From Mammaliicoccus vitulinus (lineage in GTDB: Bacteria > Bacillota > Bacilli > Staphylococcales > Staphylococcaceae): a DNA stretch of 32,000 nt. This document shows, in pieces, positions 3,447-32,000 of this stretch (position 1 is the stretch's first letter; every line of letters starts with the position of its first letter). The stretch lies in contig NZ_CP118974.1 of the NCBI RefSeq assembly GCF_029024305.1, positions 1,611,069-1,643,068 of the forward strand, given 5' to 3'. The notes beneath the pieces are model-generated. The model was not told where the DNA came from. It did not search any database and worked only from the letters and a program-made list of their open reading frames with translations. Position numbers and translations under genes: made by a program.

Positions 3447-3631
3447 GCCTTTCCTCCTTAACATTATGTTTCCTATCTATTTTACGTTATATTTCGTAAA
3501 AAAAAAAGAATATTATCATAAACAACAATAACAGTTTAGAATCTATGTACAAATTACAAATAAAGGAGAAAAACTAAACATATAACACATTATTTTTTTG
3601 AAATCGTCTTGCTTTAACGCTACCAAAACAA

Positions 3632-3658
3632 GAAAAAATGGCAGCTCTATGAGCTACC
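3632..3658 (-). terminator. Rho-independent terminator downstream of the CHAP gene
   Basis: On the minus strand: GGTAGCTC-ATA-GAGCTGCC (8-bp stem with one G-U pair) followed by a T-run (plus-strand A-run 3632-3638). Starts 5 nt after the CHAP stop codon. Confidence 0.7.
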
Positions 3659-3662
3659 AAAA

Positions 3663-4277
3663 TTAATTAGGTCTTATAAACCACATTTCTGTTTCGTAAT
3701 TATGTGTAATACGTTGTGCAACTTCAGTTTTATCCGTTCCACCACCGTACCAATTTTGATCTAAGCTTTGAAATTGCATGACGTTTCCATCAGCATTTCC
3801 ATTTAACACAATTGCAGTGTGTCCTGCACCCGAACCAAAATCTCCATTAAATACGACGATATCTCCAGGTTGTGCGACAAATGAAGGTGTGTTTTTATAA
3901 ACAGTTGCTTCACCACTAAAATTATTAGCCGTTGGAATATCTTTTGCATAATCGCCGTGTAAACCGTGACCATATAAATAATTCCAATAGTAGTTTACAA
4001 GGTCAAAACATTGCCACCCGTAATATCCATCGAAGTCCCAACCTTTACCTTCTAACGAATAGACATAACTCATCGCAGCTGTTGAAGTTTTGGCTACTTC
4101 CTTTTGGATATCACTTGATTTCTTATCGTAATTTCTATGATCAACCTCAACGTTCTGTATCTTAGGTGATTTGTCTTTAGATGTATCGTCTTCTTTAGCA
4201 TCCGCTTGCATGCTCAAATTAAGTACGGTCAAACTTGTAAATGCGACTGCTAATATTAATTTAGACTTAATTTTCAT
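3663..4277 (-). CDS. Secreted CHAP-domain peptidoglycan hydrolase (endolysin-type CHAP, no wall-binding domain)
   Basis: Sec signal peptide [27 protein letters not shown]|KEDD. The CHAP core [17 protein letters not shown]...GHTAIVL...SLDQNW...WFIRP has the Cys and His in the expected context and closely resembles the CHAP domain of staphylococcal phage endolysins as I recall it. SD AAGGGGGA precedes the ATG. Confidence 0.85.
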
Positions 4278-4440
4278 ACATCCCCCTTATAATTATGTAT
4301 TTATATATTCTTGTTCAGAATATTAAAATATTTTATCATATATAAAGTATACTGAATAGGTTATAAAGATTAATTCTTGATTACAAATAGATAACATATA
4401 TATATCTTTTCTAAAGCGCTTATAAGATCCATTAAAACAC

Positions 4441-4474
4441 AAAACAAAAAGCCCGTAACCTATAGTTACGAGCT
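4441..4474 (-). terminator. Rho-independent terminator downstream of acpP (bidirectional shape)
   Basis: On the minus strand: AGCTCGTAAC-TATAG-GTTACGGGCT (10-bp stem with one G-U pair) followed by TTTTTGTTTT. A T-run also follows on the plus side. Confidence 0.75.
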
Positions 4475-4487
4475 TTTTAAATCAGAA

Positions 4488-4721
4488 TTATTTATCTAAT
4501 GATTCAATATATTTAACAGCGTCACCAACTGTGTTGATTTTTTCTGCTTCCTCATCAGGGATTTCCATATCAAATTCATCTTCTAATTCCATTACTAATT
4601 CAGCGATATCTAAAGAATCAGCACCTAAATCATCTTTAAATGAAGCTTCAGGCGTTACTTTTTCAGCGTCTACACCTAAACGATCTACAATAATATCTTT
4701 AACTTTATCGAAACTTGCCAT
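4488..4721 (-). CDS. acpP: Acyl carrier protein
   Basis: [19 protein letters not shown] contains the phosphopantetheine attachment motif DSL. The track start at 4730 is a GTG. The ATG at 4721 (MASFDKVK...) sits 6 nt after GGAGGTG, giving 77 aa. Confidence 0.95.
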
Positions 4722-4808
4722 TCCATTCACCTCCTTTAAATAATTGTATTATCTATATAATAAGAAATGCAATTTCTCTTACTATCAATTATGCCTACAA
4801 CACAATTT

Positions 4809-5546
4809 TTATTGCATGTACATGCCACCATTAACATGTAATGTTTGACCAGTAATATAACTTGCTTTATCACTAGCAAGGAAAGCTACTGTATGTGCAA
4901 TATCATCATCTTCTCCAAATCTACCTAATGGAATTTGTGTTTTCATTTGTTCTTTCAATTCATCAGATAGTTGATCTGTCATATCAGAAACAATAAATCC
5001 TGGTGCGACTGCGTTACAAGTTATTCCTCTTGATGCTAACTCTCTCGCGAAAGTTTTTGTCATACCTTCTACTCCAGCTTTAGTAGCAACATAGTTTACT
5101 TGACCAGGATTACCTAAAGCACCTACTACACTAGAAAGATTGATAATGCGGCCTGATTTTTGTTTTAACATTGGTCTTGTAACGGCTTGAACACAATTGA
5201 ATACACCTTTTAGGTTAGTATTAATGACATCATCCCACTCATCTTGTTTCATTCTCATTAATAGATTATCTCTTGTAACACCTGCATTGTTTACAAGTAC
5301 ATCAATTGTTCCATATTGACTTGTCGTTTCTTTAATCATAGCTTTTACTTCATCAATTTCACTAACATTGGCTTGAATAGCAAAAGCATCTACGCCAAAT
5401 TCTTTTATTTCAGCAACGACTTGTTCAGCTTTTTCTTTGTTTCCTGCATAGTTTACAACTACGTTATAGCCTTCTTTACCAAGTTCTAATGCGATTTTTC
5501 TACCTATACCTCTAGAAGCTCCTGTGACGATTGCTGTTTTTGTCAT
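4809..5546 (-). CDS. fabG: 3-oxoacyl-ACP reductase
   Basis: SDR with TGASRGIG cofactor motif and catalytic YVATKAG (YxxxK). Very similar to staphylococcal FabG and positioned in the fab operon. Confidence 0.95.
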
Positions 5547-29353: not shown

Positions 29354-30241
29354 ATGAAATCAAATGAATATATTGATTATATAACTGCTCTTGAAGGAAG
29401 AAGAATATTAAGTAAAGATGAAAGAACTGACTTGATGACTCACTATAATGGCAAGGAAGGTGAAGCGTATTTCAAGGCATTTTTAAATACTTTAGAAAAC
29501 ATATCATATATACATTCATTCGAGTTTGGTACAACGAACCATGTACAAATTGACTTTTTAGTTGCCACTCCTCATAAACTTTTTATTTTCGAAGTCAAAC
29601 ATTATAGAGATGAGTGGTACTTTGAAAATGGCACTTTAAAAAATAATTACGGTATAGTTACGAAATCTCCAATAACTCAAGTACAATATATGAAAAATGA
29701 GCTTCACAAATTATTACACGACTATGGCATCTTTTTAGAAATCGAATCCTTTATAGTTTTTACAAATCCCCAATTCATACCTGCTGGTAATTGGCCTCAT
29801 GATCAAAACATCCTATTCTTAAATCAGCTTAATAAAATAGTGGCAATATTATCATCTGAACTCCCTAATAATAACCACCAAATTTTAAACTTACTTTTAG
29901 AACATGAATCAAAGCATTCCACATATTATCAAAAAGACTTTTTAACTTACTATAATTTGAATTTAGCCGGATTAAAATGTCCTTGCTGTAGAAAAATGCA
30001 TACAATAAAAGTATTAGAACAAAAAGTACATTATAATTGCACATACTGTCATACAAGCATGACATGCGAAAAAATTGTATTATTCAATTTGAAAGAACTA
30101 TATATTTTGAAAAGAGATAGTTTCACTTTAGAAGAAGCAATAACATGGTGTAGCCCAATCAGTAAATACAGAATCGCTCGTGTTTGCAACAAGCACTTTA
30201 CATCTGGGACACGTAGAAATAGAAAGTTTTATTTAAAATAA
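29354..30241 (+). CDS. NERD-domain protein with C-terminal CxxC...CxxC zinc ribbon
   Basis: NERD pattern GKEGEAYF...VQIDFLVATPHKLFIFEVKHY...SPITQVQYM...IVFTN (a PD-(D/E)xK-like D...EVK core). C-terminal segment CPCCRKMHTIKVLEQKVHYNCTYC plus a basic tail. SD GAAAGGA lies 7 nt upstream of the ATG. It is one of only two plus-strand genes in the window. Confidence 0.8.
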   Translation: MKSNEYIDYITALEGRRILSKDERTDLMTHYNGKEGEAYFKAFLNTLENISYIHSFEFGTTNHVQIDFLVATPHKLFIFEVKHYRDEWYFENGTLKNNYGIVTKSPITQVQYMKNELHKLLHDYGIFLEIESFIVFTNPQFIPAGNWPHDQNILFLNQLNKIVAILSSELPNNNHQILNLLLEHESKHSTYYQKDFLTYYNLNLAGLKCPCCRKMHTIKVLEQKVHYNCTYCHTSMTCEKIVLFNLKELYILKRDSFTLEEAITWCSPISKYRIARVCNKHFTSGTRRNRKFYLK

Positions 30242-30270
30242 CAGATACGACTTTTTCATAAGTATTTCGA

Positions 30271-30797
30271 GTCACTCCTGCTAATAACTGTAGCCTTATT
30301 TGCATTTGTTCCACTTTTTGCTAATAACCGCTGCCTTATTTGCACTTCTTCCTATTTTTGCTTCTAACGATAGCCTTATTTGCACTTCTTCCTATTTTTG
30401 CTTCTAACGATAGCCTTATTTGCACTTCTTCCAACTTTTGCTTCTAACACTAGCCTTATTTGCACTTCTTCCACATTTTGCTTCTAACGATAGCCTTATT
30501 TGCATTTGCTCCAACTTTTGCTTCTAACACTAGCCTTGTTTGCATTTGCTCTACTTTTTGCTTCTAACTGTAGCCTTATTTGCATTTGCTCCTACTTTTG
30601 CTTCTAACACTAGCCTTATTTGCACTTCTTCCACTTTCTGCTTCTAACGTTAGCCTTATTTGCATTTGCTCTACTTTTTGCTTCTAACTGTAGCCTTATT
30701 TGCATTTGCTCTACCTTTTGCTTCTAACGCTAGCCTTATTTGCACTTTTTCCTACTTTTGCTAATAACCGAATCCTTATTTGCACTTCTTTCCTACA
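30271..30797 (+). repeat. Tandem array of about 13 copies of a 40-bp non-coding direct repeat
   Basis: Units start exactly every 40 bp from 30291 to 30771, with a partial leading unit from 30271 and no indels. Consensus TAGCCTTATTTGCACTTCTTCCTATTTTTGCTTCTAACGA. Two core variants alternate (TGCACTTCTT and TGCATTTGCT). Unit positions 21-30 vary, the last two bases vary (GA, AC, TG, GT, GC), and the edge units carry a distinct tail CTAATAACYG. The last unit runs directly into the priA stop codon. Confidence 0.95.
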
Positions 30798-32000
30798 TTA
30801 CATCAACATTTGTGGATTGATATCAATCTCCAATGATAATTTGTCCTTCAAATATTGCTCATGGTAATAATCGTCTAGATATCTCAATGCTGTTAATAAG
30901 TCTGGTTCGTTTTTGAACTTTATAAGAATTTGGAATCTATGTTGATTGTTTATTCTTGATAACGGGCTTGGTGACGGTCCTAATACAAAGGATTGTGTTG
31001 TGACGTGTTGTACAAGTATTCCGTGAATATGCTTGGATGCTTGTAATACTTTTCTTTTATCGAAATGACTAATTGTTAAATTTACAAGATAGTAATATGG
31101 TGGATATTTACCGACTTGTCTAAATTTCATCTCTTTTTGATAAAATGATAAGAAGTCATTTTTCGTAACGTCTAGAATTGCGTAATGATCAGGGTTATAC
31201 GTTTGAATCATTACTTCTCCTTGTTTTTCGTGTCTGCCTGCTCTACCTGCTACTTGTGTTAACAATTGGAATGTCTTCTCACTTGATCTAAAGTCTGGCA
31301 AGTTTAGCATCGTATCTGCATTAAGCACGCCTACTAAAGTGATGTTTTCAAAGTCTAAACCTTTCGCAATCATTTGTGTACCTAATAAAATATTGGCTTC
31401 TTGATTACCAAAAGCTGTTAGCAGTCTTTCATGTGCACCCTTTTTAGAAGTTGTATCGACATCCATTCTAATCACTTTAGCACGGTCAAAAGTTTCATAA
31501 ATAATTTCTTCGACTTTTTGAGTACCTACACCCATTTGTCGAATATGTTCACTTTCACAACTCGGACATTTTTGTGGCATTGCTTCACTATATCCACAAT
31601 AATGGCATTTCAAGTCATCATGAGTCTTATGATATGTTAAAGAAATATCGCAGTTTGGACATTGTGGCACGTGTCCACAATCTCTACATAATACGAATGA
31701 CGAATGTCCTCTTCTATTTAAAAAGAGAACAATTTGCTCACCTTTATCAATTCTCTCTTGGATTGCTTCAGTTAAATCCTTCGAGAACATTGATCTATTG
31801 CCTTCTTGCAATTCTTCTCTCATATCGATCAATTCAATTTCCGGCATTTTTTGTTGATTTACGCGATCTGGCAATCCTAGATATTGATATACATTTCTTT
31901 CAGCTCGAGCAAAAGTTTCTAAACTAGGTGTCGCTGATCCTAATACTACTGGACAATTATGGTATTCACTTCGCCATATAGCGATTTCTCTAGCATGGTA
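30798..32000 (-). CDS. priA: Primosomal replication restart helicase PriA, C-terminal 400 codons (5' end beyond window end)
   Basis: Cys-rich zinc-binding insert CRDCGHVPQCPNCDISLTYHKTHDDLKCHYCGYSEAMPQKCPSCES plus helicase motifs (LLGTQMIAKGLDF, QVAGRAGR). The TTG at 31874 in the track is an artefact. Hand translation of 31875-32000 stays open and reads ...YHAREIAIWRSEYHNCPVVLGSATPSLETFARAERNVYQYLGL, typical PriA. Confidence 0.93.
   Translation of the reverse strand, partial: YHAREIAIWRSEYHNCPVVLGSATPSLETFARAERNVYQYLGLPDRVNQQKMPEIELIDMREELQEGNRSMFSKDLTEAIQERIDKGEQIVLFLNRRGHSSFVLCRDCGHVPQCPNCDISLTYHKTHDDLKCHYCGYSEAMPQKCPSCESEHIRQMGVGTQKVEEIIYETFDRAKVIRMDVDTTSKKGAHERLLTAFGNQEANILLGTQMIAKGLDFENITLVGVLNADTMLNLPDFRSSEKTFQLLTQVAGRAGRHEKQGEVMIQTYNPDHYAILDVTKNDFLSFYQKEMKFRQVGKYPPYYYLVNLTISHFDKRKVLQASKHIHGILVQHVTTQSFVLGPSPSPLSRINNQHRFQILIKFKNEPDLLTALRYLDDYYHEQYLKDKLSLEIDINPQMLM

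Follow-up and report, generated by a model that had tools for sequence, protein, structure and literature searches.

The 32,000-nt stretch of the Mammaliicoccus vitulinus chromosome analyzed here (contig NZ_CP118974.1, positions 1,611,069 to 1,643,068; hereafter, the window) contains exactly one array of 40-bp tandem repeats, which lies between a gene encoding a NERD-domain protein with a zinc (Zn) ribbon and the convergent priA gene (Table 1). Tandem Repeats Finder (TRF) calls this single array at 30291-30787 with period 40, 12.4 copies, 85% matches and a score of 589, and slicing the sequence from 30291 yields twelve 40-mers with zero indels, each of which is 32-37/40 identical to the consensus. 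Because the NERD gene ends at 30241 and the priA stop codon occupies 30798-30800 on the minus strand, the array fills the intervening gap (30242-30797) except for its first 29 nt, and the last unit stops about 5 nt short of the priA stop codon. The original prediction, which was made from the sequence alone, had described an exact-register array without indels, and this holds, with twelve full units and a degenerate partial unit at either end. The invariant unit head and the pair of alternative cores that it reported are likewise confirmed, as are the CTAATAACCG tails, which belong to units 1 and 12.

Table 1. Features in and around the 40-bp array (window coordinates).
Feature	Coordinates	Strand	Evidence or remark
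NERD/Zn-ribbon nuclease gene, 295 amino acids; proposed protein partner of the array	29354..30241	+	Pfam NERD
Junction from the NERD stop to the first repeat-derived sequence	30242..30270	+	29 nt, non-repeat, no terminator
Degenerate leading partial unit, TGCTAATAACTG at 30279-30290	30271..30290	+	Motif match starts at 30279
Twelve full 40-bp units in exact register	30291..30770	+	TRF, slicing, motif counts
Unit layout: TTAnnnGCA arm, 14-nt pyrimidine-rich stretch, TGCnnnTAA arm, 8-nt variable linker	30291..30770	+	
Truncated last unit, AATCCTTATTTGCACTTCTTTC	30771..30792	+	Same terminal unit kept in other strains (typed as units 13, 23, 50)
priA, 3' part; convergent neighbor, outside the module	30798..32000	-	

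The array is non-coding, as had been claimed, with 8-16 stop codons in each of the six frames and a longest open run of 39 codons, and both a coding repeat and replicon iterons were rejected as explanations. It is also neither a CRISPR (clustered regularly interspaced short palindromic repeats) array nor an intrinsic terminator, again in agreement with the earlier claim: the units are contiguous and differ at few positions, leaving no unique spacers, there is no cas gene among the neighbors, and a terminator scan of 30242-30797 finds no terminator-like site, that is, no GC-rich hairpin followed by a T run. Rfam gives zero matches for the window and for eight related arrays. Pyrimidines make up 71.5% of the plus strand of the array, close to the 72% predicted, its GC content is 37% compared with 33% window-wide, and the GC skew of the plus strand is -0.43. 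The proposed division of each unit into two diverged 20-bp halves fared poorly, the only trace being a TRF signal of 60-62% at period 22/24 that extends over three units and is absent in relatives.

One claim of the original prediction, that the repeat has no self-complementarity, is wrong. The inverted repeat TTAnnnGCA-N14-TGCnnnTAA is present in every unit, with 12 matches in the array and one elsewhere compared with 0.94 expected window-wide; its outer three and inner three positions pair (6/9) and the central three are open. A second motif, TGCTnnTAAC-N8-TATnnGCA, occurs 13 times against an expectation of 0.03. At the level of the repeat family described below, the inverted repeat takes the form TTAnnnRCA-N14-TGYnnnTAA.

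M. vitulinus contigs with an identical NERD or Def protein carry the same type of array in the same place, in 5.3, 7.5, 7.6, 12.4, 15.4, 18.7 or 21.5 copies. Typing the units in the manner used for the dru repeats of SCCmec (staphylococcal cassette chromosome mec) resolves 50 unit variants in nine arrays, one of these variants being 41 bp long. The strains share flanks, and sometimes end units, and the interior unit strings are almost wholly different; contigs built from short reads break off about 120 nt inside the array. The array is therefore a hypervariable variable-number tandem repeat (VNTR), and the earlier description of a recombining VNTR holds for strains whose Def or NERD proteins are identical.

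The association of such arrays with NERD genes extends well beyond this species. Every Mammaliicoccus lineage examined (M. vitulinus, M. fleurettii-like, M. sciuri-like and two further lineages) has a 40-bp array that begins 8-38 nt past the stop codon of the NERD orthologue, whatever gene follows. Behind an old paralogue at another locus (30-34% identity) stands a 41-bp array that has its own stem (for example, TTTATCA-N14-TGATAAA) and occurs in 1, 6.9 or 12.9 copies. In named Bacillaceae (Neobacillus, Metabacillus, Bacillus sp. and four strains of Oceanobacillus caeni), a 52-bp array begins 59-90 nt past the stop at all seven loci, with 6.2, 7.2, 7.2 and 17.2 copies in the O. caeni strains. 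A metagenome search with the NERD alignment yielded 37 loci, and when metagenomic and genomic loci with enough 3' sequence are taken together, 22 of 30 have an array starting no more than 450 nt past the NERD stop, mostly within 0-90 nt, with two loci further out; six more contigs end within 70 nt of the stop. Expressed as density, 23 arrays are found in 13.0 kb behind NERD genes, compared with 2 in 129.7 kb elsewhere (Poisson P ~3e-39). Moreover, the repeat period matches the protein clade, being 40 bp where the NERD protein is 57-99% identical to that of the window, 41 bp at 31-35% identity, and 51-53 bp at 24-28% identity.

Sequence and stem also differ between clades. M. sciuri has three 40-bp unit types, named A, B and C, which frequently occur joined together, always as C-B-A; each type has its own NERD clade in front of it, and the stems of the remaining clades (6-11 bp) are unrelated. 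A single metagenome assembly contains several NERD paralogues at similar read coverage (L058, L061, L066 and L072; L numbers denote the compared loci), two of which have different unit types and one of which is cut at a contig end. The array is located 3' of the NERD gene with no terminator between the two, and L001, L009 and L053 have a strong terminator beyond the array. Pointing to the adjacent NERD protein was the most useful hint in the original prediction: whether one compares species, paralogues or genera, the array accompanies the NERD gene. The linkage is strong statistically, and the biochemical partnership that it suggests is putative. At one locus, L075, 52-bp arrays of one unit flank the NERD homologue on both sides (1-208 and 1362-1513), the only such case. 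In Neobacillus sp. PS3-40 (L092), an insertion sequence (IS) element with a Transposase_mut gene (3740-4921) stands between 52-bp blocks of the same unit (3480-3644 and 5156-5346), apparently having inserted into the array.

The protein encoded upstream of the window array is identical to proteins named as those of M. vitulinus. Its sole Pfam match is NERD (E 4e-15, residues 33-137), and D67, E80-x-K82 and four cysteines are invariant in homologues down to about 20% identity. Its AlphaFold2 model has a predicted local distance difference test (pLDDT) score of 79.6, and Foldseek searches of the PDB with this model return only weak, generic restriction-endonuclease-like matches (BspD6I nickase, Bax1, the R2 restriction-like endonuclease, and Can2), which are silent on substrate. 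The model weakly suggests a PD-(D/E)xK nuclease with a nickase- or restriction-enzyme-like fold. PADLOC matches the protein to no system, PADLOC and NCBIfam together giving only noise at the level of the NERD domain, and neither the repeat pattern nor NERD relatives were found in viral contigs. Shortened or frameshifted NERD genes adjoin arrays at L004 (4001-4807), L043 (2880-3686), L059, L085 and L087 (268, 219, 207, 128 amino acids), showing that arrays can persist beside a decaying gene.

Conservation of the inverted repeat is evident when 42 array consensus sequences are aligned in register. The arms (columns 1-9 against 24-32) pair in 77.8% of the cells, compared with 21-50% after the partner arm is shifted by 1-3 columns. 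At pair 7-26, 26 rows have G-C, 15 have A-U and one has G-U, and no row leaves it unpaired; three arm pairs are invariant, whereas the dru and window types leave the three central ones open. In addition, the period is 40 bp in five Mammaliicoccus lineages in which the units are 55-65% identical. Purine/pyrimidine asymmetry, which the original prediction noted, is not supported as a defining trait: it holds in only 13 of 21 NERD-adjacent arrays.

The dru repeats (mec-associated direct repeat units, from the SCCmec hypervariable region that runs from ugpQ/mecA to IS431 and its truncated mvaS) are among the closest known relatives of the window array. They have been used for typing methicillin-resistant Staphylococcus aureus (MRSA) since the 1990s, and the mecA gene came from Mammaliicoccus; to our knowledge, dru has no known function, and neither its origin nor its role has been established so far. 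Real dru arrays, taken from SCCmec copies in plasmid records (L005 and L006), have period 40, 9.2 or 10.2 copies, and the consensus TACCTCTTATCTGCAATTTTACTTAGAACTGCTTTTAACA. In a shared register, the rotated dru unit reads TGCTTTTAAC-ATACCTCT-TATCTGCA-ATTTTACTTAGAAC and the rotated window unit TGCTTCTAAC-GGTAGCCT-TATTTGCA-TTTGTTCCACTTTT, with the conserved blocks TGCTnnTAAC-N8-TATnnGCA at the same spacing in both. The two are identical at 22/40 positions, a value reached by 79 of 5000 shuffles, and the NERD-adjacent unit of M. fleurettii type (L001) is 26/40 identical to the window unit and 26/40 identical to dru, with 0/5000 shuffles reaching either value. A blastn search in distant mode against plasmid records, three of them dru-bearing, gives no match for the window array, so that the relation is one that register and intermediates reveal and to which blastn is blind.

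A single scan of 185,579 species genomes with a pattern of one and a quarter units returned 28 stretches, 15 in M. fleurettii DSM 13212 and 13 in M. sciuri NCTC 12103. This two-species range is a lower bound, given that M. vitulinus GCA_002902265 (L037) matches the pattern 11 times yet was not returned, its stretch probably being masked in, or absent from, the scanned collection. In M. fleurettii, the arrays match dru at 32-38/40 positions and occupy different loci. At the native mec locus (L026 and L033), dru has ugpQ on one side and an mvaS of full length on the other, and its right flank is the one also found in SCCmec. In the M. fleurettii DSM 13212 assembly, this native dru is split over two contig ends, one carrying mecA-maoC-ugpQ-dru (L033 2668-2759) and the other dru-mvaS (L026 91-217), because the draft assembly breaks in the repeat. 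Comparison of these sequences indicates that dru is one member of a dispersed Mammaliicoccus family of which the window array is a more distant member. The suspicion in the original prediction that the window repeat might be related to dru is therefore borne out at the level of the family (period, register and conserved blocks), which occurs at many loci and includes this named repeat, but the window array is not dru itself. The two are alike in their 40-bp period, in-register variation in copy number, and genus of origin. They differ in location, which is ugpQ-mvaS'/IS257 in SCCmec for dru and the chromosomal def-NERD-priA region for the window array, and in that dru has no NERD neighbor whereas the window array is directly behind a NERD gene; furthermore, dru-type units dominate M. 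fleurettii and not M. vitulinus. An element of about 200 bp to the right of dru in SCCmec (L005 10783-10996) has a weak Rfam match to the S. aureus small RNA tsr24 (27 bits compared with a gathering score of 50), which is beside dru and not within it. Homologous copies of this element stand beside dru-type arrays at at least six M. fleurettii loci (also L026 230-337 and L034 250-361).

In M. sciuri and M. fleurettii, the arrays have dispersed to sites close to terminators. All 27 arrays with two known neighbors are intergenic, 14 of them between convergent and 13 between tandem genes, with none between divergent genes, and those in tandem contexts are sense to local transcription in five cases and antisense in eight. 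The array strand homologous to the NERD-sense strand is the strand with negative GC skew at 27 of 31 loci, and it is opposite to most genes at 22 of 31. Orthologous loci in the two species both hold arrays, each with the unit type of its own species. On either side of some composite C-B-A arrays of M. sciuri NCTC 12103 (L024 3166-4045, L030 3650-4324 and L025 2984-3739) stand direct copies of a terminator hairpin specific to the locus. These copies align with scores of 47 and 44, compared with a 99th-percentile null of 35, and look like an insertion footprint. No such flank duplication is seen around the window array, for which the scores (15 direct, 12 inverted) fall inside the null. Further arrays of 39-41 bp with unrelated sequences are present in M. 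sciuri and M. fleurettii (L012 2436-2836, L017 1557-1947, L019 886-1068 and L029 6411-6818), and at least two of them have an inverted repeat of their own, such as TTAGGGACA...TGTCCCTTA. As a result, more unit families exist than the search pattern could detect.

A second set of relatives is provided by the constant-size repeats of Firmicutes. In Bacillus and other Firmicutes, Subirana and Messeguer (2021) described tandem repeats whose size is constant (52 nt) and whose sequence varies and is specific to the species, every unit containing short motifs plus their reverse complement (PMC8161180). Arrays of this kind are reported to be transcribed in B. coagulans and to have no known Cas-like partner protein, and repeats of 40-41 nt are mentioned only as relatives of a 20-21-nt class (PMC8161180). 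Two NERD-adjacent 52-bp units match published families, namely L085 with B. coagulans 2_52_35 and L094 with 8_52_18, each at 34/52 identity, which 0/1000 shuffles reach in either comparison; the protein encoded at L085 shares 91% identity with one from Heyndrickxia coagulans. The Mammaliicoccus arrays share with these repeats a fixed period that three does not divide, sequence particular to each species, strain variation, and a motif accompanied by its reverse complement. Many arrays per genome are present in M. sciuri (at least 13) and M. fleurettii (at least 15), whereas for M. vitulinus the analysis covered this locus, and the window has one array. They differ in unit size, which is 52 or 20-21 nt in the published work and 40 bp (41 bp in the paralogue clade) in the genus Mammaliicoccus. 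What is already known of an array such as that in the window is thus its likeness to dru and to constant-size tandem repeats, and the unexpected part is its linkage to NERD genes. In the literature covered, which lies outside subscription journals, we found nothing linking NERD genes to repeats and nothing on dru-like arrays dispersed in Mammaliicoccus.

Taken together, these comparisons suggest two readings of different scope. For the window itself, our leading but tentative interpretation, held with less than even confidence, is that the array may be the cognate nucleic-acid partner in a two-part module with the upstream NERD/Zn-ribbon nuclease gene. More generally, we are evenly divided on whether NERD/Zn-ribbon nucleases and hairpin arrays of constant period constitute an unrecognized gene-repeat system across Bacillales, with units of 40-41 bp in Mammaliicoccus and 52 bp in Bacillaceae, that would resemble either repetitive extragenic palindromes (REPs) and their associated tyrosine transposases (RAYTs) or type III toxin-antitoxin (TA) systems but be built on a PD-(D/E)xK enzyme. 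In the mechanism that we propose, the one short hairpin or palindrome in each unit would serve as the recognition site for the nuclease, and the constant period would correspond to the space taken by one protein unit. The gene-proximal array would stay linked to the gene and is probably co-transcribed with it. Nicking or binding, most likely on single strands at the replication fork, would lead to in-register gain, loss and conversion of units, and the VNTR behavior is proposed to result from this turnover. Over evolutionary time, by analogy with REPs and RAYTs, the same activity might seed units at other intergenic sites close to terminators, and the dru repeats of SCCmec would then be a dispersed copy from M. 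fleurettii that moved with mecA. Contact between protein and repeats, a DNA rather than an RNA substrate, and nuclease-driven turnover and spread are what we infer from this pattern.

The analogy with REP/RAYT systems has clear limits. REPs are short imperfect palindromes that are clustered and sometimes composite, are extragenic at the 3' ends of genes, and form species-specific families, as do the dispersed arrays of M. sciuri and M. fleurettii, and both systems have a single-copy nuclease gene adjoined by repeats of its own family. The REP partner, however, is an HUH/Y1 (IS200/IS605-like) transposase rather than a PD-(D/E)xK NERD protein, and the arrays described here, whose mobility is putative, are head-to-tail direct repeats of fixed period that occur on the 3' side only, except at L075.

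Several observations weigh against a partnership of array and nuclease. The support is comparative throughout, and the metagenome loci are not all independent. Eight of the 30 homologue loci, mostly the most distant ones, lack a tandem array, although inspection shows one or two type-B units at two of these (L060 and L061, in a 40%-identity clade) and about 2.3 units at a third (L067), which TRF missed. Most dispersed arrays have no NERD neighbor, so that action in trans must be assumed, and in M. fleurettii the array next to the NERD gene matches the dominant dru type of that genome at only 27/40 positions. In the window array, the central three stem positions are unpaired and predicted RNA folding is weak (z = -1.9 for the plus strand and +0.1 for the minus strand). 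The structural matches of the NERD protein are also weak, with E values of at least 1.5e-3, and selection, not the way in which the arrays spread, could be behind the strand bias. Finally, the excess of G-T over A-C mismatches on the sense strand (16 to 8) is not significant and leaves both strand and molecule undecided.

The main rival to the DNA-based reading is a relationship at the level of RNA, which we regard as somewhat unlikely. Here the array would be transcribed as the 3' part of the NERD mRNA, and the 40-nt hairpins would be processed by, bind or inhibit the nuclease in the manner of type III TA systems or Cas6. ToxI-type antitoxins have a comparable repeat length and copy number, and type III systems (ToxIN, CptIN, TenpIN, and AbiQ/antiQ) likewise combine a nuclease gene with short tandem non-coding repeats of about 35-45 nt that co-vary with the protein. 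The fixed position and orientation of the array 3' of the gene, the absence of a terminator between them, and the terminator that follows the array at three loci (L001, L009 and L053) are consistent with this idea, and the mismatch excess would point the same way were it significant. Further support is provided by the reported transcription of 52-nt arrays in B. coagulans (PMC8161180) and by a NERD domain of Trypanosoma brucei that is reported to act on RNA (PMC12702573). In type III systems, however, the array is upstream of the toxin gene with a terminator between the two, whereas the NERD-linked array is downstream with none; the protein belongs to a different fold and family from the RNases of the ToxN, AbiQ, CptN and TenpN type and has no PADLOC match; and NERD-linked arrays reach about 22 copies, with dozens of orphan arrays in both orientations relative to local transcription. 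The weak RNA folding of the window array argues in the same direction.

It is unlikely, in our judgment, that the array is a neutral or selfish minisatellite, slippage-prone and without function, whose position behind the NERD gene reflects shared ancestry or an insertion preference. Such an origin would account for the extreme variation, in both copy number and unit strings, that is seen where strains have identical flanks, the single unit that one strain (L051) keeps, and the truncated or frameshifted NERD genes beside arrays (L004, L043, L059 and L085), and it sits well with the degenerate hairpin in the window and with the absence of a known function for dru. It leaves unexplained why three periods and many unrelated sequences all occur 0-90 nt behind the stop codon of one protein family across genera (the density comparison given above), why period tracks protein clade, why the arms covary, and why the period remains nearly free of indels as the sequence diverges to 55%. 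A neutral state is nonetheless possible for the present-day array in the window, the stems of which are degenerate.

We consider it quite improbable that the arrays are phased sites for loading a polymerizing protein, NERD or other, that acts without cleavage in nucleoid organization or a segregation-type role. The architecture is reminiscent of sopC, an array of 12 x 43 bp located downstream of sopB on the F plasmid and bound by the protein of the preceding gene; there too, units roughly 40 bp long, each containing a short inverted repeat, are arranged in tandem right after a gene. Conservation of the outer triplets TGC and TAA around a free center is what a bipartite dimer site would show, and Subirana and Messeguer read the constant period in a similar way (PMC8161180). 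Against this explanation, the NERD arrays are chromosomal and multi-locus, no ParA/ParB-like gene is nearby, and stem sequences are wholly different between clades, with several types in one genome. Moreover, the adjacent protein keeps its nuclease site, and invariance of the catalytic D-E-K motif in all homologues argues for an active nuclease. A role as a transcription buffer, in which the array would stand in for missing terminators between the convergent NERD and priA genes by Rho loading on C-rich, unstructured plus-strand RNA or by polymerase stalling, fits the lack of an intrinsic terminator on either side in M. vitulinus, the way in which the array abuts the priA stop codon, and the pyrimidine content and GC skew of the plus strand, but is very improbable given that orthologous loci have a normal bidirectional terminator in addition to the array, that 8 of 21 NERD-adjacent arrays are not pyrimidine-rich, and that period conservation and dispersal are left unexplained.

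If the reading of array and NERD nuclease as partners is correct, the system would provide the 'enigmatic' 52-nt repeats of Bacillus with the partner protein that they lack and would explain the origin of the MRSA typing locus, dru being a single copy from a native repeat family dispersed in the genus that gave mecA. The constant-size repeats of Bacillus and Paenibacillus are a published puzzle, for which the clade-specific linkage to a nuclease gives a concrete and testable candidate. A real partnership would also be a new case of a host-encoded nuclease that maintains its own repeat family, with a bearing on genome plasticity, assembly breaks and strain typing. Should the module instead operate at the level of RNA, it may represent a new kind of toxin-antitoxin or defense system.

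The original prediction framed the array as a filler of the gap between NERD and priA. This framing is incidental, given that priA is not the neighbor in several strains and species, in which YrhK or a glycosyltransferase island takes its place. In some M. vitulinus strains (L044-L046 and L048), an island of glycosyltransferase and acyltransferase genes lies between the array and priA, and because L048 retains about 20 nt of the 3' end of priA beside the array, the breakpoint of the island is inside priA and not at the repeat. A bidirectional terminator is located between the array and priA in three other lineages (L001 5090-5180, L009 4715-4800 and L053 5060-5115), and M. vitulinus is without it.

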